The translations under genes and the position numbers were made by a program. DNA of 64,000 nucleotides from an uncultured Gemmatimonadales bacterium (GTDB taxonomy: Bacteria > Gemmatimonadota > Gemmatimonadetes > Gemmatimonadales > GWC2-71-9). The stretch spans positions 18,217-82,216 of the forward strand of contig CAVQWA010000053.1 of NCBI GenBank assembly GCA_963717315.1, in the 5' to 3' direction. Below the pieces are notes generated by a model. It was given only the letters and a program-made list of their open reading frames with translations. It was not told the origin of the DNA and searched no databases. Shown here piece by piece: positions 32,133 to 64,000 of the stretch (the stretch's first letter is position 1; every line of letters starts with the position of its first letter).

Positions 32133-34707
<2,575 letters not shown>

Positions 34708-38853: not shown

Positions 38854-38901
38854 GGCGGGGAGAGGGGAGAGGGGAGAGGGCCCCTCTCCCCTCTCCCCGC
38901 C
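38854..38901. repeat. GGGGAGA/TCTCCCC heptamer hairpin element, copy b
   Basis: Perfect 21-bp stem: GGCGGGGAGAGGGGAGAGGGG (38854-38874), loop AGAGGG, then CCCCTCTCCCCTCTCCCCGCC (38881-38901). It abuts the GT9 stop codon (38901-38903). Confidence 0.9.
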
Positions 38902-39923
38902 TACCCCCCCATCCCCTCCAACCCCGCCCCCACTTCGGCCGGACTGATGTCGCGCAGGCAGCGGTGGTGGCCCAGGGGGCATACCGGTCCGCCGTGAGAG
39001 GAGCAGGGGCGACAGGGCAGGTCGCGTTCCAGCACGGTGGCGCGGGCCCGGTAGGGAAAGAACCCGAATTGGCGCACCGTCGGCCCGAACAGCGCCACGA
39101 TGGGGGTGCCGACGGCGGTGGCCATGTGCATCACGCCGGTGTCGCCCGCGGCGGCGGCGGCGGCCGCGGACAGCAGGCCGCCGGTCCCCTGCAGGGTCGC
39201 CTCGCCGGCAGCACACGCGGCGCGGGCGCCCCCGCTCTCCGCGATCGATGTCGCGAGCGCCCGGTCCTCCGGCCCGCCGACCACCACGACGTCGCTGCCG
39301 CGCGCGGTGAGGGACCCCACGAGCGCCTGCCACGACTCCGCCGGCCAGCGCTTGGTGGCGTGGGCCGCTCCCGGCGCGAGGGCGACGAGCCGTCGCTCGC
39401 GTCCCAGGTTCCGCGCCCCGAGCCAGGCGCGGGCCCAGGCGACCGCGTCGGGGTGCAAGCCGAACTCGGGGGGACCGCCGTCCGGCTGCACGTCCAGCCC
39501 CGCCGCCGCCTGGAAATACCGCTCCGCCACCGGGAGTGCACCGGAGGGGTAGCGGTTGAGCTTGTGGCGGACCAGGAGCCAGCGCGCCGCGCGATGGTGG
39601 GAGAACGTGCCCCACCGGCCCCGCACCAGGCGCCGAAGCGCCCGGGTGCGCAGGCTCCCGTGCAGGTCGAGGAGGTGGGTGAAGCGCCCCGCGCGGATCC
39701 GCGCGGCGAGCGACCGGAGCGGCTCGCCCGGGCCGAGGCCGTGCACCTCGTCAAGGTGCGGGTTGTCGGTGAGGAGGGGGAGGAACGCCGCGCGGGTGAA
39801 GGCCGCGAGGTGGGCCTCCGGGTGCCGCCTCCGGAGCGCGCGCACCAGCGGCGTCGTCAGCAGGATGTCGCCGATGGCGCTGAAGCGGAGCAGGAGGATG
39901 CGGGGCGGGGCGGGGGCCGGCAC
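38901..39923 (-). CDS. Glycosyltransferase family 9 (ADP-heptose:LPS heptosyltransferase-like)
   Basis: 340 aa with GTG start. Motifs: ILLLRFSAIGD.LLTTP..RALR...P, K.WP...W..L, D.G.MH.A.A.G.P.VALFGPT. Confidence 0.85.
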   Translation of the reverse strand: MPAPAPPRILLLRFSAIGDILLTTPLVRALRRRHPEAHLAAFTRAAFLPLLTDNPHLDEVHGLGPGEPLRSLAARIRAGRFTHLLDLHGSLRTRALRRLVRGRWGTFSHHRAARWLLVRHKLNRYPSGALPVAERYFQAAAGLDVQPDGGPPEFGLHPDAVAWARAWLGARNLGRERRLVALAPGAAHATKRWPAESWQALVGSLTARGSDVVVVGGPEDRALATSIAESGGARAACAAGEATLQGTGGLLSAAAAAAAGDTGVMHMATAVGTPIVALFGPTVRQFGFFPYRARATVLERDLPCRPCSSHGGPVCPLGHHRCLRDISPAEVGAGLEGMGG

Positions 39924-39949: not shown

Positions 39950-40006
39950 GGAAGGGAGAGGGGAGGGGGAGCGGGGCCGTCTCCCCTCTCCCCTCTCCCC
40001 TCTCCC
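39950..40006. repeat. GGGGAGA/TCTCCCC heptamer hairpin element, copy c (in a divergent promoter region)
   Basis: G-arm 39950-39976, then ccgt, then C-arm (CTCCCCT)x3-like at 39981-40006. GGGAGAGGGGAG (39954-39965) can pair with CTCCCCTCTCCC in three 7-nt registers. The element ends 14 nt before the ATG at 40021. Confidence 0.85.
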
Positions 40007-43410: not shown

Positions 43411-44399
43411 CGGCGCCCGCCGCGTCGCGCACCGTGCTGCTGGTCGCGCCCGCCGACGCGGGCCTGCACGCCCACGCCGCCCTCCGCCGCCGCGCCCTCG
43501 AGCGGCTCGGCTGGGCCGTCCATCACGTGAACTCCGGCCGGGAGGGCGGGTTCCTCTCGCGGTTCACCGGCGGGAGCGACCTCCGCACCCGCCTCGCCCG
43601 TGCACTCGACGCGGCCCGGCCCGACCTCGTCCTCGTCGCCGGGGAGCAGGCGCTCGGCGGGGACACGATCGCGGCGCTCCGGCCCCGCAGCGCCGCGCGC
43701 TGGGTGGCCTGGTTCCCTCACGGGCTCGAGTCGGCGGAATCGCTCTGGGAGGAGGCGCAGGCCTACGACCGGGTCTTCGCCAGCGGGTCCGACGTCGCCG
43801 GGCTGCTCGCCGAGCGGCGCCGCGACACGCCGGAGTGGCTGGCGCCGGCCTGCGATCCCTCGGTTCACCGGCCCCTCCGGGCCGGCGGGGAATTCCGCGC
43901 CAATGTCGTCTTCGCCGGGCGGGCCACCGCCCGCCGGGAGGCGCTCCTGGCGCAGCTGGTCGAGTTCGGCCTCGCGGTCTGGGGGCCGGGCTGGCGGGGC
44001 ACCTCGCTTCGCGATTACTGCCGGGGGGAACGGATGGTGATGGATGACTTCCTCCGAGCCTACGGCGGGGCGTCGGTGGCGGTGAACATCCACCACACCG
44101 CGGACGGGGCACTCGCGGGCCGGGACACCGGCTGCAACCGGCGGGTCTTCGAGCTCGCCGCGATCGGCGCCGCCCAGGTGGTGGACGACCGCGCCGACCT
44201 GCACGGCGCCTTCACCGAGGGGGAGGAGCTGCGAGTCTTCCGCTCGGCGCACGAGCTCCGCGCGCAAGTCGAGGCGCTGCTCCACGACCTTCCGGGCGCC
44301 GAGGCGATGGGCGAGGCTGCCCGCCGCCGGGCCATCGCCGAGCACACCTACATGCACCGCCTGCGGCAGCTGGTGCGGGCCGTGGGTTTTGCGTCGTGA
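43407..44399 (+). CDS. CgeB-family (DUF3880-like) glycosyltransferase, paralog 1
   Basis: In-frame ATG at 43407 (ATGA overlap with the ABC gene), 330 aa. Motifs: F.G....R......L....L.VWGPGW, N.R.FE.AA.GA, H.YM.R. Similar along its length to the gene at 47044-48078. Confidence 0.7.
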   Translation: MTAPAASRTVLLVAPADAGLHAHAALRRRALERLGWAVHHVNSGREGGFLSRFTGGSDLRTRLARALDAARPDLVLVAGEQALGGDTIAALRPRSAARWVAWFPHGLESAESLWEEAQAYDRVFASGSDVAGLLAERRRDTPEWLAPACDPSVHRPLRAGGEFRANVVFAGRATARREALLAQLVEFGLAVWGPGWRGTSLRDYCRGERMVMDDFLRAYGGASVAVNIHHTADGALAGRDTGCNRRVFELAAIGAAQVVDDRADLHGAFTEGEELRVFRSAHELRAQVEALLHDLPGAEAMGEAARRRAIAEHTYMHRLRQLVRAVGFAS

Positions 44400-45655
44400 C
44401 CCCGGCCGCGCGGCGGTGGGCGTGGGCCGCCACCGCGGTGGCCGGGGCCGTGGCGCTCTCCCTCTGGCAGCTCGGCCAGCGGACCGGCACCGACTTCCAC
44501 GTCTTCTGGCAGGCGGGGCGCGACTTCCTCGACGGCCGGCCGCTCTACCAGCGGGCGCCTGGCGCCCGGAGCTTCATCTACCCGCCCTTCGCGGCGATGG
44601 TCTTCCAGGTGCTGGCCGTCGCCCCGTTGCGGGTGGCCGCGGTGGGGTTCCACGCCCTGAGCCTGCTCCTGGTCGGTGTCGTGGGGCTCCAGTCGGTCCG
44701 GATCGCCGAGCGGAGCCTCCCCGGGCTCGGCCGATGGCGCTGGCCGCTCGCGCTGGCGTTCCTGGGTGGCTTCCACCTGGTGCTCAACAACCTCAAGCTG
44801 AACCAGGTGAACCTGCTCGTCCTGGCGCTCTGCCTGGGCGGGTTGCTCGCGGAGCTCCGGGGCCGGAGCCGGATGGCGGCGCTGCTCCTCGTGGTGCCCA
44901 CCCTGATCAAGCTCACCCCGGGGATCTTCCTGCTCTGGCTCCTGCTGCGGGGCCGGCGGCGGAGCCTCGCGGCGGCGGCGGTCCTGACCCCGCTGCTCCT
45001 CGCCGCGCCGCTGGTACAGCGTGGGCCGGCCCGCGGGGTGGCGGATTACCGGGAATACGTCGAGAGCTTCCTCGGGGGGTTCGCCCGCGGCCGCGTCGTC
45101 CGCGACGTCACGAACCAGGGGCTCGCGGCCGCGGTCCACCGCGCCACGATGGCGCCGGAGGGCCCGGATCAGCGGAACTGGGTGCTGGTGCCGCTCGGGG
45201 AGCGCGCCGCGGCGGCGGCAACCCGCGCCGCGCCCGTGGCCGTGCTGCTCGCGCTGATCGCGGCACTCGCCCTCCTCGCCCGCACGCGGCGCCCGGTGGG
45301 CGCCCACGAGCTCGCGGCGGTCTTCCTCGCGATGCACCTCGTCTCGCCGATCACGTGGAAGGCGCACCTGGTGAGCCTCCTCTTCGTGTTCTTCGTCCTG
45401 CTCGCGACTCCCCTGGCTGGCCTCCCGCGGGGCGGGCGCTGGCTGGTGCGCGGCCTCGGCGCCGCGTGCGTGGCCACCGGCTTCGCCGGGCGCGACCTCG
45501 TCGGCCGCGAGATGCACCTCCGGCTCGGCGGCTACAGCCTCTTCGCGTGGCTCATGCTCGCCCTCTTCGGCGTGATGCTCTGGCTCACGTTCCGCCAGCC
45601 GGCCGGGGCGCCGCAGGACTCGCCGGGCGGGAACGGGCCGGCACCGGCGGGCTGA
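44396..45655 (+). CDS. DUF2029/GT87-like polytopic membrane glycosyltransferase (GT-C fold)
   Basis: 419 aa with GTG start (GTGA overlap). Motifs: DF.VFW.AG......PLY, YPP.AA, many TM segments, and SPITWKAHLV. Confidence 0.8.
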   Translation: MTPAARRWAWAATAVAGAVALSLWQLGQRTGTDFHVFWQAGRDFLDGRPLYQRAPGARSFIYPPFAAMVFQVLAVAPLRVAAVGFHALSLLLVGVVGLQSVRIAERSLPGLGRWRWPLALAFLGGFHLVLNNLKLNQVNLLVLALCLGGLLAELRGRSRMAALLLVVPTLIKLTPGIFLLWLLLRGRRRSLAAAAVLTPLLLAAPLVQRGPARGVADYREYVESFLGGFARGRVVRDVTNQGLAAAVHRATMAPEGPDQRNWVLVPLGERAAAAATRAAPVAVLLALIAALALLARTRRPVGAHELAAVFLAMHLVSPITWKAHLVSLLFVFFVLLATPLAGLPRGGRWLVRGLGAACVATGFAGRDLVGREMHLRLGGYSLFAWLMLALFGVMLWLTFRQPAGAPQDSPGGNGPAPAG

Positions 45656-45724
45656 CGCGCCTGCTTGCGGGCCGTCGGCGGGCCCGGCGACATTCCGCGC
45701 GGCCCGGACCCAGGAGGACGGCGG

Positions 45725-46585
45725 GTGGTCAAGATCTCGGGGTTCACCATCGCGCGCAACGCGGTGAAGCTCTGCTTCCCGCTCGAGGCGAGCATCCGCT
45801 CGCTGCTCGAGGTCTGCGACGAGGTGGTCGTGAACGTCGGACAGTCGGAGGACGAGACCCTCGACGTGGTCCGCGGCATCGGGAGCCCGAAGGTCCGGAT
45901 CCTGGAGAGCACCTGGGACCTCGCCAAGCGGAACTACGTGCTCGGCGAGGAGACCCTCAAGGCGATGCGCGCGTGCGCCCATCCGTGGGGGATCTACATC
46001 CAGGCCGACGAGGTGCTCCACGAGGACGGGGCTCGCTCGCTCGCGGCCGCGATCCAGGCCGCCGACGGCGACTCCCGGGTCGAGGGCCTCCTGGTGCACT
46101 ACCGGCACTTCTACGGCGACTTCGACACCCTCGCCACGCATCGCCGCTGGTACCGCCGCGAGGTGCGCGCCGTGCGGCTCGATCCCGCGCTCGACATCCG
46201 GCCCTACCAGGGCGCGCAGGGCTTCCGGGTCGGCCCCGAGCACCGGAAGATCCGCGCCCGGCTCACCGACGCGGAGATGTTCCACTACGGGTGGTCGCGG
46301 CCCCGCATCGCGCTGGAACGGAAGCGCGAGGTGGGGAGGGCGATGTATCCGTGGCGGCCGGCGGGCGAGGAGCAGCCGCTGGTCCCGTGGATCCCGGGCC
46401 TCCGTCCCTTCACCGGCACGCACCCCGCCGCGGCGAGGGACTACCTCGCGCGCTGGCGTGGCGAAACGGCGGCGGTGGGCCCGCGGCGCTTCAAGCCGGC
46501 CTTCCTCCGGTTCTGGGCGTCGGGGGTGATCGAGCGCCTGACCGGCGCGCGCGTGTTCGAGTTCCGGAACTACGAGGAGGTGTGA
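45725..46585 (+). CDS. Glycosyltransferase family 2-like protein
   Basis: GTG at 45725 sits 7 nt after AGGAGG. The track start at 45665 is the alternative. N-terminus VVKISGFTIARNAVKLCFPLEASIRSLL..CDEVVVNVG.SED.T is typical of this GT2 subgroup. Confidence 0.75.
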   Translation: MVKISGFTIARNAVKLCFPLEASIRSLLEVCDEVVVNVGQSEDETLDVVRGIGSPKVRILESTWDLAKRNYVLGEETLKAMRACAHPWGIYIQADEVLHEDGARSLAAAIQAADGDSRVEGLLVHYRHFYGDFDTLATHRRWYRREVRAVRLDPALDIRPYQGAQGFRVGPEHRKIRARLTDAEMFHYGWSRPRIALERKREVGRAMYPWRPAGEEQPLVPWIPGLRPFTGTHPAAARDYLARWRGETAAVGPRRFKPAFLRFWASGVIERLTGARVFEFRNYEEV

Positions 46586-46588
46586 CTC

Positions 46589-46626
46589 GGGGAGGGGAGA
46601 GAGGGAGAGGGAGAGGGGAGAGGGGA
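46589..46626. repeat. Heptamer element copy d, purine (G/A-only) arm
   Basis: A 38-nt uninterrupted purine tract, GGGGAGGGGAGAGAGGGAGAGGGAGAGGGGAGAGGGGA. It starts 3 nt after the GT2 stop and ends 4 nt before the four-helix-bundle gene's stop. Confidence 0.8.
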
Positions 46627-46630
46627 ATGC

Positions 46631-46987
46631 TCAGTCGACGCGCAACTTCCTCAGGAGTCCGAGCAGCAGGCCTCGGCACCGGGCGTTCCGCTGGATGAGT
46701 GGCGCGACCTCGGCCTGCGGCACAATCGACGACATTGCCAGCAACTCGAGCACCTCCCCCGCTTCGACCGCGGAACCGTAGGCGATGCGTAGATGGCGCA
46801 GGAAGGTCCTGCGCCCTCCGGCTGCGTACCCCTCCGCGATGTTGAGCTGCACCGAGAGCGCAGCTCGCTGCAACTGGTGGTAGTAGGCGGATCCCGCTGG
46901 ATGCCAGTGGTCCCTCGAGAGCGCGAACGTCCCTCGGACGACGGCGTGCGCTTCCTGCCAGGCGACGAGGGTGCGGTGCGACTTCAC
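46631..46987 (-). CDS. Four-helix-bundle protein (23S rRNA intervening-sequence protein family, TIGR02436/PF05635-like)
   Basis: 118 aa with GTG start. Family pattern L.AWQ.AH......F, L..Q.QRAA.SV..NIAEG......R.F...L.IA.GS..E. GC content is visibly lower than in neighbouring genes. Confidence 0.8.
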   Translation of the reverse strand: MKSHRTLVAWQEAHAVVRGTFALSRDHWHPAGSAYYHQLQRAALSVQLNIAEGYAAGGRRTFLRHLRIAYGSAVEAGEVLELLAMSSIVPQAEVAPLIQRNARCRGLLLGLLRKLRVD

Positions 46988-47043
46988 GCTCCGACACTGC
47001 GCTGCGGCGTCACCCGGGTGGCATCATCCCCACGCGCACAGGG

Positions 47044-48078
47044 TCAGGGAATCGCAGGGTGTTCCCCCTCCCCTCTCCCCCCTCCCCTCTCCCCGATCTC
47101 GTAGCCCCTCCCCTCCACCAGCAGCCTGACGCGGTCCGCATAGGTATGCTGCGCGAGCGCGTGCCGTCTCCCCGCCGCCGCGATCGCCGCCCGCCGTCCC
47201 GGCTCCGCCAGCGCCCACCGCGTGATGGCCACCGCCTCCTCCACGCTCCCGTACCAGCGGCAGTGCTCGCCGTCCCGCGCGAAGACCTCGATGTCCGGTA
47301 CCCGCTGGCCGAGGTAGAACCCGCCGCAGCCGAGGATCTTCCACATCCGGTTCGACGCCGAGGCGCGGTCGAGGTCCTGGGCCGGCACCGCGTTCGCGCC
47401 CAGGTTCACCGCGGCGCCGGCCACGACCTTCGCGAAGCCGCGGCCGCGCACCTCGCCTCCCGCCACCGGGAGGTCGCGGGGAGCGCCGCGCCACCCCGGA
47501 CCGCGGATCTGCAGCCGGCAGGCGGCGGCGATGGCGCGAAGCAGGGGCCAGCGGTGCGGGAAGGGTCCCGAGCCGACGAACGATGCGTCGCAGCGGTAGG
47601 CGGCGGGGACGCGCGGGGCGGGGCGGTCCTGGTCGGGGTCGAGCCCCTGCGGCAGGAAGCGGACGACCGGCACCTCGCGCTCGTAGTCCGGTACCTGCGC
47701 GAGGTAGGTCACGTACAGCGTGCCGGCCAGCCGGGCCAGCGCCGTCACTTCCGCGCGAGGCGCCGGGTCGAAATACCAGACTGCGGCGTCGCGCCCGTGG
47801 AAGAGCGCGCGGAGCCGCTCCGCCCCGAGCAGGTGGGCGTGCCGGGTGCAGAGCACGAAGTCGGGCTCGAAGCCCCGCGCGCGGCGGTCGGCCACCGCGA
47901 GGCCGAGCGCGCCGAGCCGTCGCGCCATCCCGGCCACGTCCACCACAAGTGCGGCGTGGCCCAGTCGCCGGGCGCCGCGGGCGATGGCATCCTCGGTCTT
48001 GTGCCGCCCACCCGCGCCGAGGACGAGGATCCGGCGGGGAGGGAGGGGCGCGGTCGGTTCGGGCGGCGTGGCGGGCAT
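47044..48078 (-). CDS. CgeB-family (DUF3880-like) glycosyltransferase, paralog 2, with a repeat-encoded C-terminal tail
   Basis: Internal ATG at 48078 of the 741-aa track ORF, 344 aa. Motifs: RILVLGAGG, SFVGSG, IRGPGW, N.R.....GCGGF, HTYADR. The last 17 aa (GERGGGRGEGEHPAIP) derive from the repeat arm and the sequence flanking it. Confidence 0.7.
   Translation of the reverse strand: MPATPPEPTAPLPPRRILVLGAGGRHKTEDAIARGARRLGHAALVVDVAGMARRLGALGLAVADRRARGFEPDFVLCTRHAHLLGAERLRALFHGRDAAVWYFDPAPRAEVTALARLAGTLYVTYLAQVPDYEREVPVVRFLPQGLDPDQDRPAPRVPAAYRCDASFVGSGPFPHRWPLLRAIAAACRLQIRGPGWRGAPRDLPVAGGEVRGRGFAKVVAGAAVNLGANAVPAQDLDRASASNRMWKILGCGGFYLGQRVPDIEVFARDGEHCRWYGSVEEAVAITRWALAEPGRRAAIAAAGRRHALAQHTYADRVRLLVEGRGYEIGERGGGRGEGEHPAIP
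47062..47094. repeat. Heptamer element copy d, pyrimidine (C/T-only) arm, inside the 3' end of a glycosyltransferase gene
   Basis: A 33-nt pyrimidine tract, TTCCCCCTCCCCTCTCCCCCCTCCCCTCTCCCC. It is complementary in composition and heptamer phase to the arm at 46589-46626, about 435 bp away. Confidence 0.75.
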
Positions 48079-48102
48079 CGATCGGAGTAGTTTACACCCG
48101 CG

Positions 48103-54397: not shown

Positions 54398-54458
54398 GGC
54401 GGGGAGAGGGGAGAGGGGAGAGGGGAGAGGGGAGAGGGCCGCCTCCCCTCTCCCCTCC
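54398..54458. repeat. GGGGAGA/TCTCCCC heptamer hairpin element, copy e
   Basis: G-arm GGC(GGGGAGA)x5GGG at 54398-54438, loop CCGC, short C-arm CTCCCCTCTCCCCTCC at 54443-54458. The perfect core is 13 bp. It fills the convergent gap between the DUF853 stop (54397) and the tyrS stop (54461). Confidence 0.9.
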
Positions 54459-54460
54459 TA

Positions 54461-59292: not shown

Positions 59293-59841
59293 GTGCGCTG
59301 CCTCGCGCTCAACGCCTCCTTCGAACCGCTGACCCTCGTCCCGGTGCGCCGCGCGCTGCGCCTCGTCATCGAGGGAAAGGCGGAGATCGTCGAGGCGGAC
59401 CGTGACCAGATGGTCCGAAGTGCGCGGCTGCTCCTGCCCAGACCGGCGATCATCCGCCTCGTCCGGTTCGTGCACGTTCCCCGCCGCTTCCGCCGCCAGG
59501 TCACCAACACCTTCCTCTTCGCCCGCGATGAGTACCGCTGCCAGTACTGCGGCCGGCACCAGTTCGAGCTGCGCCACCGCGAGTGCCTGACCCGCGACCA
59601 TCTGGTGCCGGTGAGCCGGGGAGGCGGGAACCTCTGGGGCAACGTGGTCACCGCCTGCTCCAGCTGCAACACGCGGAAGGGGAACCACCTTCCGGAGGAG
59701 TGCGGAATGCACCCGCGGGTGCCCCCGGTCGAGCCGCACTTCGTCCACCTCGCGTGGGCGGTACGCCGCCTCACCGACACCCAGGCGAAGTACATCCGGC
59801 TGTTCTACGGGCCGGCGGCAGTGCGGGCCCTCGGGGGGTGA
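59293..59841 (+). CDS. HNH endonuclease
   Basis: 182 aa with GTG start. Motif: C.YCG.......LT.DH..P.S.GG...W.N.V.AC..CN..KG. Confidence 0.85.
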   Translation: MRCLALNASFEPLTLVPVRRALRLVIEGKAEIVEADRDQMVRSARLLLPRPAIIRLVRFVHVPRRFRRQVTNTFLFARDEYRCQYCGRHQFELRHRECLTRDHLVPVSRGGGNLWGNVVTACSSCNTRKGNHLPEECGMHPRVPPVEPHFVHLAWAVRRLTDTQAKYIRLFYGPAAVRALGG

Positions 59842-59903
59842 GCGGGGAGAGGGGAGACGGGAGCCTCTCTCCCCTCTCCCGTCTCCCCTCTCCCCTCTCC
59901 CGC
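59842..59903. repeat. GGGGAGA/TCTCCCC heptamer hairpin element, copy f
   Basis: Perfect 20-bp stem: GGGGAGAGGGGAGACGGGAG (59844-59863) pairs with CTCCCGTCTCCCCTCTCCCC (59876-59895). A C interrupts one arm and the matching G interrupts the other. It spans exactly from the HNH stop (59841) to the DUF4390 stop (59903). Confidence 0.9.
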
Positions 59904-62299: not shown

Positions 62300-63669
62300 G
62301 AGCGGATCCCCAGCCGGCGCATCCGGCGATAGAGGTTCGGGCGGTCGGTCCGGAGGAGGCGGGCGGCCTCGGCAACGTTGCCGGCAGTGCGCTCGAGTGC
62401 GCGGGTGATGAGGTCGCGCTCGTAGGCGTCGAGCGCCTCGGGCAGCGCGCGTTCGCCCAGGGCGGGGAAGAAGGCCACCGCCGGCTCCCCGCCGGGGGTG
62501 CCGGGGCCGCCTCCGCTCGCGGGAAGGACGGCGCGCACCGCGTCCTCGTCAATCGTCTCCCCGCCAAGGATCGTGAGCCGCTCCACCACGTTGGCCAGCT
62601 CCCGCACGTTCCCCGGCCAGCGGTACCCTGCCAGCGCCGCCAGCGCTCCGGGGGTGATGCGCGGGGGCCGGAGCGGCCGGAGTCGCGCGGCGAGGTGGGT
62701 GGCCAGCGCGGGCAGGTCCTCGATCCGATCCCGGAGGGGCGGGAGCCGGATGGGAAAGACGTTCAGCCGGTAGAAGAGGTCCTGCCGGAATTCGCCTCGG
62801 CCCGCGGCCATCTCGAGGTCGCGGTTGGTGGCGGCCACGAGCCGGACGTCCACCCGGTGGGTGGTCTCGGCGCCGACCCGCTGCACCTCCCCGCTCTCCA
62901 GCGCGCGGAGCACCTTCGCCTGCGCCTCGAGGCCGAGATCGCCCACCTCGTCGAGGAAGGCGGTGCCCCCGTCGGCCAGCTCGAAACGCCCCAGGCGGCG
63001 CTCGGTGGCGCCGGTGAAGGCGCCGCGCTCGTGGCCGAACAGCTCGCTCTCGACCAGGTCGCGCGGGATTGCGGCGCAGTTCACCGGCACGAACGGCCCC
63101 CGGGCGCGCGCGCTGGCGCGATGGATGGCGGCCGCCACCAGCTCCTTGCCGGTGCCCGATTCGCCGGTGACGAGCACCCGTGCCTCCGTCGGCGCCACCT
63201 GGGCCACCAGGGCGCGCACCGCCTGCATCCCCGCGCTCTGGCCCACGAGCTCGGCCGGCGGGGCCAGCCGTTCCCGGAAGGCGCGGTTGGCGGCGCGGGT
63301 GCGATGGAGCTCGAGGGCGGCGTGGAGCGTCACCAGCACCGACTCGGGGCTGAGCGGCTTCTCGATGAACTGGAAGGCGCCGAGCCGGGTGGCCCGCACG
63401 GCGTCGGCCAACTGGGCCTGGCCGCTCATCATGATCACCGGCGCGCTCACCCCCCGCTCGGCGAGCGTGGCCAGCGTGGCCAGCCCGTCGGGGCCCTGCG
63501 GCATCATCAGGTCGAGGAAGATCGCGTCCGGCTCCGCGCGCTCCACCTCGAGGAGCGCGGCTGCCCCGCTTGGCGCCTCGCGCACCGCGTACCCCTCGGC
63601 CCTGAGGAGCGCGCCGAGCATCCGCCGGATGTTCGGCTCGTCGTCCACCACCAGGATCGTGGATGCCAC
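62296..63669 (-). CDS. Sigma-54-dependent response regulator (NtrC/AtoC family)
   Basis: 457 aa. REC domain (ILVVDDE...FLDLMMP), Walker A GESGTGKE, GAFTGA, WPGNVREL, and a C-terminal Fis HTH. Confidence 0.92.
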   Translation of the reverse strand: MASTILVVDDEPNIRRMLGALLRAEGYAVREAPSGAAALLEVERAEPDAIFLDLMMPQGPDGLATLATLAERGVSAPVIMMSGQAQLADAVRATRLGAFQFIEKPLSPESVLVTLHAALELHRTRAANRAFRERLAPPAELVGQSAGMQAVRALVAQVAPTEARVLVTGESGTGKELVAAAIHRASARARGPFVPVNCAAIPRDLVESELFGHERGAFTGATERRLGRFELADGGTAFLDEVGDLGLEAQAKVLRALESGEVQRVGAETTHRVDVRLVAATNRDLEMAAGRGEFRQDLFYRLNVFPIRLPPLRDRIEDLPALATHLAARLRPLRPPRITPGALAALAGYRWPGNVRELANVVERLTILGGETIDEDAVRAVLPASGGGPGTPGGEPAVAFFPALGERALPEALDAYERDLITRALERTAGNVAEAARLLRTDRPNLYRRMRRLGIRS

Positions 63670-63672
63670 CGG

Positions 63673-64000
63673 TCAGGCCGCCGCGCCGCGGGGCAGGTGT
63701 ACCACGAAGGTGGCGCCGCCGCCGGCTGTCTCTTCCAGGTGGATCCGGCCGCCGTGCGCCACCACGGTCTGCCGCACCAGCGCGAGGCCCAGCCCGGTGC
63801 CATCCGATTTCGTCGTGACGTACGGGTCGAAGATCCGTTCGCGCACCGCCTGCTCCACGCCGGGCCCGTGGTCGCGGAGGCGCACCACCACCCCGCCGTC
63901 CGGCACCGGGCCGACGTCCACCTCGACCGCGCCCGTCCCATCCATCGCCTCCGCGGCATTCCGGAACAGGTTCGCGAACGCCCGCCGGAGCGGGTCGTAC
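63673..64000 (-). CDS. Sensor histidine kinase, C-terminal HATPase_c part (runs off the window end)
   Basis: The frame continues upstream of the 90-aa track ORF to the window edge. Motifs: N.F.NA.EAM, D.GPG.........F.PY.TTK..GTGLGLA. Confidence 0.8.
   Translation of the reverse strand, partial: YDPLRRAFANLFRNAAEAMDGTGAVEVDVGPVPDGGVVVRLRDHGPGVEQAVRERIFDPYVTTKSDGTGLGLALVRQTVVAHGGRIHLEETAGGGATFVVHLPRGAAA

Follow-up and report, generated by a model that had tools for sequence, protein, structure and literature searches.

A four-helix-bundle gene in the 64,000-nt stretch of Gemmatimonadales DNA analyzed here (the window) is enclosed by two complementary heptamer arrays, and the locus is probably a selfish cassette of the intervening-sequence (IVS) type located outside rRNA, with the compact hairpins dispersed nearby as its cargo-less relatives or landing sites. 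Such a cassette would measure ~0.5-0.65 kb and comprise a G-rich tandem-heptamer array, a spacer, a PF05635 gene and a complementary C-rich array.

At the window locus, the two arms (Table 1) are separated by a gap of 435 nt that holds the 118-aa gene, so the arrangement described in the first-pass annotation was confirmed both by coordinates and by pairing. On the minus strand, which is the sense strand of the gene, the 5' arm is G-rich (GGGGAGA/GGGGAGG units; a pyrimidine array on the plus strand) and the 3' arm is C-rich (a purine array on the plus strand). The best ungapped pairing between the arms spans 31 nt with 84% complementarity (46594-46624 with the 5' arm), and the predicted minimum-energy fold of the minus-strand RNA from 47110 to 46570 is closed by the arm-arm stem; by both measures, the locus has the complementary ends, forming a long stem around an ORF, that are expected of an IVS. 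The 3' arm lies 4 nt past the stop codon of the four-helix-bundle gene and 3 nt past that of the convergent GT2-like gene, and on the other side the reading frame of the CgeB-like gene runs through the 5' arm, adding the tail GERGGGRGEGEHPAIP before it stops at 47044. The reported lower G+C content of the interval also holds, although the difference is modest (0.665-0.70 between the arms vs 0.73-0.78 in the flanks).

With 2 mismatches allowed at most, the window yields 28 matches to the heptamer pattern GGGAGAGGGGAGAGG compared to 1.0 +/- 1.0 in shuffled sequences, and heptamer elements are dense (6 in 64 kb). All five compact hairpins of the window use the cassette's own unit with the G-rich arm first, which bears out the earlier observation that the long stem is built from the same repeat as the compact hairpins. 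In locus L003, the position orthologous to the hairpin beside tyrS carries an array of another unit, CTTCTCA.

Table 1. Positions of the cassette, its neighbors, the compact hairpins and an unoccupied junction in the window.
Feature	Position	Strand	Basis or remark
Compact G-first hairpin, GGGGAGA, 14-nt loop, downstream of ruvB	34517..34580	.	repeat search
Compact hairpin without loop, convergent genes either side (minus-strand one GT9 heptosyltransferase)	38857..38898	.	
Compact hairpin, divergent GT9 and PglZ response regulator genes either side	39950..40006	.	
Host gene, weak GT2-like match, convergent with cassette side	45665..46585	+	stop codon 3 nt before arm
Purine array, 3' arm on the gene's sense strand	46589..46626/7	-	sequence GGGGAGGGGAGAGAGGGAGAGGGAGAGGGGAGAGGGGAA
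118-aa four-helix-bundle gene (PF05635 / TIGR02436, "23S rRNA intervening sequence protein")	46631..46987	-	profile matches, AF2 model
Spacer, 5' arm to start codon, 74 nt	46988..47061	-	sequence inspection, comparison of related loci
Pyrimidine array, 5' arm on the gene's sense strand	47062..47094	-	sequence TTCCCCCTCCCCTCTCCCCCCTCCCCTCTCCCC
Host gene, PF13524 Glyco_trans_1_2, CgeB-like	47044..48090	-	profile match, synteny
Compact hairpin filling gap between HerA-like and tyrS stops	54401..54459	.	
Compact hairpin, convergent genes either side (HNH; weak DUF4390 match)	59838..59901	.	
Junction of two adjacent genes, downstream one NtrC-type regulator	63660..63690	-	empty

The enclosed protein is a member of PF05635 (E=6.9e-17, 62.1 bits against a cut-off of 33.8 bits) and of TIGR02436 (E=1.7e-17, 63.6 bits against a cut-off of 24 bits). 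Its AF2 model (pLDDT 94.7; helices at residues 4-26, 30-56, 59-85 and 91-117) is an up-down four-helix bundle like 2GSC and 2RLD, the best PDB matches returned by Foldseek (TM 0.81-0.84 and 0.75-0.81, respectively), which were followed by the Avd proteins of diversity-generating retroelements (DGRs). Among 15 sequences from four phyla, the window protein included, Q, S, N-AEG, S and E are invariant, and the window protein carries the NIAEG and S..E motif. An exact-protein look-up returned no record of this protein, and the PF05635 family is very large, with at least 7,983 of the 8,000 candidates that were scored in a search with the XCC0516 fragment reaching E <= 1e-5. The homology of Avd and PF05635 has been noted before (PMC10053308), and the two share a common fold (8UB7, 4DWL; TM ~0.73-0.77); nevertheless, the window protein is only ~10% identical to Avd in sequence, its neighbors are glycosyltransferases, and none of the genes that flank the cassette, either in the window or in the syntenic loci L003-L005 (by precomputed Pfam annotation for the latter), carries a reverse-transcriptase annotation; DGR membership was therefore rejected.

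The spacer upstream of the gene lacks a Shine-Dalgarno sequence, and consensus scans of the locus for sigma-70 promoters and intrinsic terminators gave no matches. A weak TAnnTT(G)-like motif, CAGTGTCGG, is found just upstream of the GTG start and is a putative internal promoter that would give the four-helix-bundle gene a leaderless mRNA. A distance of ~70-80 nt between arm and start is typical among 80 related loci, which are weakly conserved at -12..-5 and -43..-38 from the start codon. Since the Gemmatimonadales gene seems to have its own promoter-like motif within the loop, the stem is probably not part of the gene's own mRNA, which corrects the first-pass annotation, where stem and ORF had been likened to those of an IVS; a gene mRNA without the 5' arm, as this weak motif suggests, counts against the cassette model.

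To place the window locus among its relatives, loci were picked via the PF05635 gene and not via the repeats. Arms bracket the gene in 67 of 79 Gemmatimonadales loci at a score of >=15 (2 of 400 controls) and in 75 of 79 at a score of >=12 (10 of 400 controls). Among 68 diverse metagenomic homologues, arms were found in 72-87% compared to 0-1% of controls (49/68 vs 0/300 at a score of >=15), and bracketing arms are present on 25 of 40 viral contigs. Additional copies of arms plus gene occur on cyanobacterial plasmids (L086, L088, L089, L096-L100), and in the Xanthomonadales orthologues of XCC0516 the cassette lies inside accB-accC, one arm directly adjoining the accB stop and the other the accC ATG. 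The design is found in Gemmatimonadota, Cyanobacteria, Xanthomonadales, Alphaproteobacteria and a range of metagenomic and viral contigs that have no assigned taxonomy. The best arm period is 7 or 14 in 54 of 67 arms (66 of 500 random 42-mers), distances between the arms fall into two classes (0-190 nt or 421-603 nt), and the G-rich arm comes first in 84 of 90 pairs and in 39 of 45 arms of the broad set. The repeat unit varies among loci but the two arms within one locus always match; this co-variation, together with the control-tested bracketing of other four-helix-bundle genes, bears out the proposal that the arms belong with the gene.

Beyond co-varying between loci, the arms form the boundaries of the segment that is copied or replaced and that is found at some sites and missing from others. 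Comparison of the window with L003 gave nucleotide identities of 85-97% in the flanks, including the GT2-like gene up to the arm, and of 45-75% between the arms; the flanking proteins are 85% and 94% identical, whereas the four-helix-bundle proteins are 61% identical. In this comparison with a close relative, identity falls from ~90% to ~55% exactly between the arms. L033 contains two cassette copies that share 84-98% identity over precisely the segment bounded by the arm edges and a background level of 30-48% beyond it. Finally, orthologous sites were found in three states (groups A-D): occupied, compact hairpin alone, and no hairpin. For example, the NtrC-type junction of the window (position 63672) is a 2-nt gap without a hairpin, and its counterpart in L084 contains a complete arms-plus-gene cassette. 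At the level of sequence comparison, the no-hairpin sites and the arm-to-arm duplicate of L033 show that the gene moves together with its arms as a single module.

In several respects, the cassette resembles MITEs and other small elements with terminal inverted repeats: inverted repeats delimit the copied unit (the L033 duplicate, the L003 break), it is present or absent at orthologous sites, cargo-less short forms exist, and there is a multi-copy case (L033) in which identity ends at the termini. It differs in lacking a known transposase, the cassette encoding no movement enzyme, and in having tandem arrays as termini, the unit of which varies between copies. Visual inspection of L033, L084 and L015, limited by divergence and by the repetitive termini, revealed no target-site duplication. 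The window-site cassette is old and syntenic in L001-L005 and L007, indicating, as far as synteny can tell, that this copy is not recently mobile. Across related strains, both arms are kept and co-vary (GGGGAGA in the window, GGGGAGC in L003-L005), the 5' arm being retained throughout L001-L005 and the synteny of the CgeB-like gene in L003-L005. Empty compact hairpins, which the first-pass annotation had envisaged for this locus in related strains, do exist as orthologous sites at positions other than the window locus. That annotation offered two readings, a gene that landed in a hairpin or hairpins as cargo-less derivatives; they are not exclusive, and the compact-hairpin empty sites fit either. 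Conversely, whether every split heptamer hairpin encloses this gene was examined across 1.15 Mb of sequence. HMM searches run at maximum sensitivity detected no PF05635 remnants, either in compact-hairpin loops or in the remaining split pairs; small inner hairpins or copies of a different, ~180-nt repeat occupy the loops, and the remaining split pairs are separate arrays beside ordinary genes.

The insertion sites of 23S rRNA intervening sequences are helix 25 or 45, and ORF-bearing examples have been known since the early 1990s. Genuine 23S IVS with period-7 arms were recovered in our survey (L095 plus about 10 of L101-L122, including L101-106, L108, L110, L117 and L122), which substantiates the suggested tie between the window locus and ORF-bearing 23S IVS. 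PMC4990558 describes a helix 45 IVS with an S23p/PF05635 ORF in Coxiella and, by citation, in Leptospira; the Coxiella IVS starts with the tandem heptamer GACAGAT in variable copy number, and its 28-bp stem was shown to be cleaved by RNase III (PMC4990558). The window cassette has the same layout, a PF05635-family gene in the loop of a long terminal stem, and a similar size (428-444 nt in Coxiella, PMC4990558; a 435-nt loop here). Unlike the 23S IVS, the window copy lies between two glycosyltransferase-type genes, has a ~74-nt spacer with a promoter-like motif, and shares its arm unit with dispersed compact hairpins in the same window. Rfam searches of the complete window at the gathering threshold and of the locus at E <= 1 found nothing relevant and no rRNA; given this result and the protein-coding flanks, an insertion into 23S rRNA was rejected for the window copy itself.

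Under the cassette model, ORF-bearing 23S IVS would be those cassettes whose site happens to be rRNA helix 45, and the cassette would be a selfish module inserting at gene junctions. In any host transcript that crosses it, the two arms would pair, so that the insertion folds out as a closed stem; with the G-rich arm leading on both strands, the hairpin looks alike in either direction of reading. Host flanks would thereby be rejoined, with the upstream stop beside the downstream start in operons and the helix halves together in rRNA. A period of 7 or 8, which is not a multiple of 3, combined with TGA-containing units, would place a stop in every frame, and host ribosomes running into the G-rich arm would meet it whichever frame they follow. 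The compact hairpins made of the cassette's unit would be cargo-less relatives or landing sites. In both L015 and L084 an arm provides the host stop codon, in L015 the host ATG lies directly beside the other arm, and 41 of 64 G-strand units contain a stop triplet (24.6 +/- 3.0 expected). Counting against this stop logic, the window unit GGGGAGA has no stop codon and the neighboring ORF reads through the arm. Arm-arm mismatches are symmetric (103 G:T vs 90 A:C, no strand bias), which fits DNA-level pairing equally well and does not single out sense RNA, antisense RNA or DNA.

The tandem heptamers of cyanobacteria, the STRR repeats, were reportedly described by Mazel et al. in 1990. G-rich heptamers are also documented in Xanthomonas (GGGAATC) and Nostoc (GGGGA(C/T)T) (Rehm et al. 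2015, PMC4692102). Like the arrays of the window, these are intergenic tandem heptamers, many of which form G-first convergent inverted pairs 20-70 nt apart (PMC4692102), as the compact hairpins do, and both features were found in the window. In addition, repeat #15 of Table A in that paper (PMC4692102) is the 5' arm of the XCC0516 cassette. The published repeats are presented as G-quadruplex or simple-sequence elements without a link to PF05635 (PMC4692102), whereas in most Gemmatimonadales units (GGTGAAC, GGTGAGC and others) the runs of G are not long enough to form a classical G-quadruplex. Since most units, AGTGAAG among them, lack G-runs >=3, a G-quadruplex was rejected as a general explanation.

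These dispersed repeats could instead be substrates of the protein, an alternative that we consider unlikely. As RAYT genes sit between REPs, the gene would sit between two copies of its own substrate, and its product would recognize heptamer-array hairpins in trans and spread or maintain them, the compact hairpins being non-autonomous products. The geometry is that of REP-flanked RAYT genes, a protein gene between inverted short repeats that are also dispersed as compact hairpins and whose sequence changes from genome to genome, but the arms are variable-length tandem arrays and not a fixed palindrome. The arm unit is common to compact hairpins in the window, L023, L033, L042, L044, L061 and L074, although nearby compact hairpins use other units in L035, L037, L043, L059, L075 and L003 (1-55). 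Genomes with dispersed heptamer arrays do carry the gene inside arrays (Xanthomonas GGGAATC, Nostoc; PMC4692102), and the fold is related to that of Avd, part of a reverse-transcriptase ribonucleoprotein in solved DGR structures. Nevertheless, the protein has no recognized catalytic motif and is a four-helix bundle of PF05635 without a match to the HUH tyrosine transposase family, and REP/RAYT (REPIN) membership was rejected on this ground. Coupling between protein sequence and repeat unit is also weak (57% identity with the same unit, 50% with distant units; rho -0.20), and the correlation could stem from shared descent. Lastly, rRNA IVS copies retain heptamer arms.

A purely cis-acting role for the stem is more doubtful still. 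The arms would only control or stabilize the enclosed gene (through 5'-3' pairing, start-codon occlusion or RNase III control), the gene would be vertically inherited, and the compact hairpins would be unrelated terminator- or REP-like elements arising from a slippage-prone repeat. The start codon is in or beside the 5' arm in Xanthomonadales, many metagenomic copies and IVS copies, as this explanation would have it, but in Gemmatimonadales the 5' arm is ~80 nt upstream of the start codon, beyond the promoter-like motif. Synteny of the window cassette among relatives, and compact hairpins that keep their position while the unit changes, are in keeping with this explanation; presence or absence at orthologous junctions, some without any hairpin, the bounding of the L033 duplicate by the arms, and the collapse of identity exactly between the arms in the comparison with L003 are not. 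As for two independent half-copies of an abundant intergenic repeat falling by chance beside a small gene, heptamer arrays are dense in the window and single arrays flank ordinary genes elsewhere (examples are a His-rich ORF of L075 and two ORFs of L042 and L046 that resemble small membrane proteins), but the bracketing frequencies (0.5-2.5% of controls vs 85-95% of PF05635 genes), the recurrence in other phyla and the tight arm-to-arm spacing (~430-480 nt) refute this explanation and leave it a negligible probability.

Literature searches, which did not cover Ralph & McClelland 1993, found no publication that connects PF05635 genes with heptamer arrays in general. A broader form of the link, in which PF05635 proteins and tandem-heptamer hairpins make up a single ancient, cross-phylum, two-part mobile system, strikes us as improbable; in it, a pentameric Avd-like nucleic-acid binder would act in trans to create, extend or copy hairpins, perhaps together with a host polymerase or reverse transcriptase that it recruits. 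If true, the STRR, GGGAATC and GGGGAGA/GGTGAAC repeats and the rRNA IVS would share one mechanism, and four-helix-bundle genes between cas genes and inside operons would be its products too. For the IVS-type cassette that we favor, one testable system would join the puzzle of why some 23S rRNA genes carry ORF-bearing IVS with the questions of what the large PF05635 "four helix bundle protein" family does, where the abundant cyanobacterial and Xanthomonas heptamer repeats originate, and why operons such as accB-accC, and the intervals between cas genes, harbor PF05635 genes. The architecture is relevant to genome annotation as well, since translating the arms often yields spurious ORF tails or N-termini. 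More generally, it would represent a way to tolerate insertion in transcribed DNA, in which a symmetric hairpin folds the insert out and the flanks rejoin.

The split heptamer element described by the first-pass annotation was confirmed in its two arms, their separation of 435 nt, the enclosed minus-strand gene for a 118-aa four-helix-bundle protein and the lower G+C of the interval (0.67-0.70 between the arms versus 0.73-0.78 outside, in a window of 74% G+C). The best ungapped pairing of the arms spans 31 nt at 84%, and the predicted minimum free energy RNA fold of the locus is closed by the arm-arm stem. Matches of the protein to PF05635 (62 bits; cut-off 33.8) and TIGR02436 were accompanied by a single PDB sequence match, XCC0516 (entry 2GSC), and AF2 predicts a four-helix bundle (pLDDT 94.7) with 2GSC and 2RLD as closest structural neighbours, followed by Avd of diversity-generating retroelements (DGRs). 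On one side the element is flanked by a GT2-like gene, with 3 nt separating its stop codon from the arm, and on the other by a PF13524 gene with a reading frame that crosses the arm there.

Positions of heptamer arrays and associated features in the window and in numbered loci (L) with related PF05635 genes
Feature	Sequence	Position	Strand	Remark
Purine array	Window	46589-46626	+	Unit GGGGAGA
Complement of purine array	Window	47062-47094	+	
ORF between arms	Window	46631-46987	-	118 aa; PF05635, TIGR02436
PF13524 glycosyltransferase-like ORF	Window	47044-47100		16-residue Gly/Arg/Glu-rich tail gained from arm
GT87-family gene	Window	44396-45655		
Compact hairpin	Window	34517-34580		Unit GGGGAGA
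Compact hairpin	Window	38857-38898		Unit GGGGAGA
C-rich 9-mer array	Window	38895-38925		CCCCCCCAA x3.4; directly after preceding hairpin
Compact hairpin	Window	39950-40006		Unit GGGGAGA
Compact hairpin	Window	54401-54459		Unit GGGGAGA; after HerA-like gene
Small HNH endonuclease gene	Window	59293-59841		Terminates within G-rich arm of next hairpin
Compact hairpin	Window	59838-59901		Unit GGGGAGA
~180-nt loop repeat(s)	L074	14314-14676		
~180-nt loop repeat(s)	L044	3489-3681		
~180-nt loop repeat(s)	L051	1639-1749		
Non-G-rich hairpin	L023	6938-7099		
Non-G-rich hairpin	L029	3940-4063		
Non-G-rich hairpin	L038	14861-15021		
Non-G-rich hairpin	L046	8357-8550		
Non-G-rich hairpin	L063	5307-5465		
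Direct-orientation arrays	L090	1330-2030		
Gene with 3' arm	L085	1400-1900		
Octamer arms	L087	2770-3600		

The best protein matches of the window gene were Gemmatimonadales sequences, and the flanks of close relatives, which the first-pass annotation had allowed might be unrelated, were not. Both arms were kept in L001 (94% amino acid identity) and L002 (90%) and, together with the gene neighbourhood, in L003-L005 (61%), where the unit of the arms is GGGGAGC / GCTCCCC, indicating a joint change of the two arms. The window and L003 share 85% and 94% identity in the flanking proteins but only 61% in the four-helix-bundle protein; at the nucleotide level, identity stays at 85-97% as far as each arm and is 45-75% between the arms. 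The cassette interior is an evolutionary module of its own, with the arms as its limits. The window and L005 also differ in glycosyltransferase-cluster content, since a GT87-family gene between the PF13524 and GT2-like genes is absent from the syntenic L005 stretch.

Other four-helix-bundle genes proved to be bracketed in the same way. A profile scan using one genome per species yielded 79 loci, nearly all from Gemmatimonadales. Scoring the best ungapped complementarity of the upstream 250 nt to the stop-codon region (-30 to +150 nt), with no period assumed, found arms at 67 of them at a score of at least 15 and at 75 at a score of at least 12, compared with 2/400 and 10/400 for random 350-nt pseudo-genes in the same loci (maximum score, 19). 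The arms are tandem arrays, with a best period of 7 or 14 in 54/67 versus 66/500 random 42-mers. Units vary by locus (GGTGAAC, GGTGAGC, GGTGAGA, GGAGTGA, GGGAGAC, GGGGAAC, AGTGAAG and others), but despite this diversity the arms within each locus match. Across 1.15 Mb, the arm-to-arm distance was bimodal (0-190 nt or 421-603 nt) and the G-rich arm came first in 84 of 90 pairs; the few C-first pairs arose because hairpins of a second, non-G-rich kind, present alongside the G-rich ones in Gemmatimonadales (units CGAGTAC, GCTATTG and GCTAACA/AGCTATC), were counted among them. Pairing in the 5' arm stops a median of 81 nt short of the start codon, and the 3' arm begins a median of 13 nt past the stop codon. 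No Shine-Dalgarno signal was found in the spacer between 5' arm and start codon of the Gemmatimonadales loci; its weakly conserved motifs, TAnnTT(G) at -12..-5 and AATTGG at -43..-38, may constitute an internal promoter for leaderless mRNA. In L003 and P0004/P0009 the four-helix-bundle ORF was called as 135-149 aa because it extends into the arm; ORF calls are artificially lengthened by the arms.

The heptamer pattern occurs 28 times in the window versus 1 expected. The G-rich arm is first in all six window elements (the split element and five compact hairpins), so that the hairpin reads alike on either strand. In L003 the hairpin following the HerA-like gene has as its counterpart an array built on another unit, CTTCTCA; the site is conserved and the repeat unit replaced. 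Compact-hairpin loops hold small inner hairpins or ~180-nt repeat copies, and no gene remnants were found in them. The ~180-nt repeat, one or two copies of which lie in some loops, is unrelated and strongly self-complementary (…GAGCGAAGCGAGGGATCTAG…), suggesting that the loops are landing sites of another small element.

When the flanking sequences of every Gemmatimonadales cassette were compared with all loci, three states emerged at orthologous junctions: occupied, compact hairpin and no hairpin. At one junction, L027, L041, L043, L046 and L047 are occupied, L036 and L064 have a compact hairpin with the GGTGAAC-type unit of the occupied copies, L061 has a compact GTGAAAA hairpin and L025 only the G-rich arm; at another, L009, L012, L021 and L031 are occupied and L082 has a compact hairpin of a different unit. 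Elsewhere, L015, L016 and L035 are occupied where the genes of L012 and L031 overlap at ATGA with no hairpin, and L084 is occupied where the window (~63672) has a 2-nt gap between genes and no hairpin. The empty compact hairpin to be looked for in relatives was seen at other orthologous junctions and not at the window site, where L001-L005 retain the arms. In the operon cases L015 and L084 the G-rich arm provides the host stop codon, and in L015 the downstream ATG adjoins the other arm, a geometry as in accB-accC. Two L033 cassettes in one genome are 84-98% identical from outer arm edge to outer arm edge and 30-48% identical outside the arms. We take the three states and this duplication to indicate that the cassette can be inserted as a unit. 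No target-site duplication was seen by eye at L033, L084 or L015, where divergence and repetitive termini limit the view.

The arms are complementary, co-vary and mark the limits of the module. We propose that they would pair in any host transcript crossing the element, in either direction, folding out the insert and rejoining the host flanks, as do IVS stems in rRNA, which are cut there by RNase III. With the G-rich arm first, the C-rich arm would never stand alone in a read-through transcript, and Rho loading would be avoided; where transcription begins at the internal promoter, the C-rich arm would be left unpaired and could serve as a Rho site after the ORF. Ribosomes running into the G-rich arm would meet stop codons in all frames, since a period of 7 or 8 is not a multiple of 3 and stop-bearing units therefore give stops in every frame. 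A stop triplet occurs in 41 of 64 G-strand units versus 24.6 +/- 3.0 expected; the window unit, GGGGAGA, lacks one. Mismatches between arms showed no strand bias by class, so that pairing at the RNA and DNA level both fit. Recombination-driven exchange between same-unit arrays would be a simple possibility for cassette copying. A REP/RAYT-like or RT-linked role of the protein, a minority reading, is consistent with its Avd-like fold and with the co-occurrence of the gene with dispersed heptamer hairpins, but protein similarity tracks the arm unit weakly, which counts against strict sequence-specific recognition. DGR membership was rejected, as the genes flanking the cassette in the window and in the syntenic loci include no annotated RT, and a RAYT system because the enclosed protein is PF05635 with no HUH family match.

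Paired arms around a PF05635 gene recur in other phyla. XCC0516 orthologues lie within the accB-accC operon of Xanthomonas, Rhodanobacter and Stenotrophomonas, where the 5' array (GGGAATC/GGGATTC) begins 5-6 nt past the accB stop and includes the four-helix-bundle start codon, and the complementary array finishes exactly at the accC ATG. Rehm et al. 2015 recorded the XCC0516 5' array as repeat #15 with inverted partner 'no', and 70-75 compact convergent pairs genome-wide with no link to the XCC0516 gene (PMC4692102). Cyanobacterial plasmid copies (Stanieria, Picosynechococcus, two in Nostoc punctiforme, Anabaena sp. 90, Geminocystis, Calothrix and Trichormus) all have heptamer arms, and several lie between cas genes, in agreement with an earlier report of the family in cas loci (PMC3936711). 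Cassettes among type III-B and I-D cas genes include L088 (cas10-cmr3) and L090 and L096 (cas6-cas4), and the 'CRISPR-associated' label of the family may reflect mere insertion at gene junctions. L090 (Pseudanabaena) departs from the simple hairpin plan, with ~17 AAAAGCT upstream and ~10 AAAAGCC downstream of the gene in direct orientation and an inverted TTTTAGC array further upstream. In L085 (Nostoc PCC 7120 pCC7120gamma) the gene retains its 3' arm (CTTCTGC/CCTCTGC), and at the expected place of the 5' arm, 78 nt upstream, lies the end of an ISL3 transposase gene; the ATG is preceded, here and in Stanieria, by a second short repeat with the sequence TACTTCAAACTT. An octamer variant, L087 (Gemmatirosa kalamazoonensis plasmid 1), has GGCAGGAG x4 upstream, itself folded back onto a partial complement, and CTCCTGCC x4 past the stop codon.

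The likeness to ORF-bearing 23S IVSs drawn by the first-pass annotation extends to arm design. A plasmid copy from Azospirillum lies in 23S rRNA as a true IVS with arms CAGAGGA/CGGAGGA, and a metagenome scan seeded with its protein gave 80 diverse loci (G+C 0.32-0.69), about ten of which, judged by their flanks, are true 23S IVSs sharing heptamer arms. Among the 68 scored, 49 reached at least 15 and 59 at least 12 (controls, 0/300 and 4/300), with a period mostly of 7 and of 8 in about ten loci; 25 of 40 viral contigs scored at least 15. The Coxiella IVS (428-444 nt) has a 28-bp terminal stem, RNase III cleavage and, at its 5' end, tandem GACAGAT heptamers of variable copy number (PMC4990558). 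The nearest known systems are ORF-bearing 23S IVSs, together with the families of heptamer repeats described in Xanthomonas and cyanobacteria. From the IVSs the window element differs in not lying in rRNA, the defining IVS feature, but it shares the remaining testable ones. Both systems were known, and what seems to be new is the general link of PF05635 genes with heptamer arms, for which we found no precedent in a literature search that covered subscription papers thinly, making an earlier description possible. The recurrence in Xanthomonadales, cyanobacteria, IVSs, metagenomes and viral contigs makes the heptamer stem with PF05635 a single cross-phylum class, of which the rRNA IVS is a special case.
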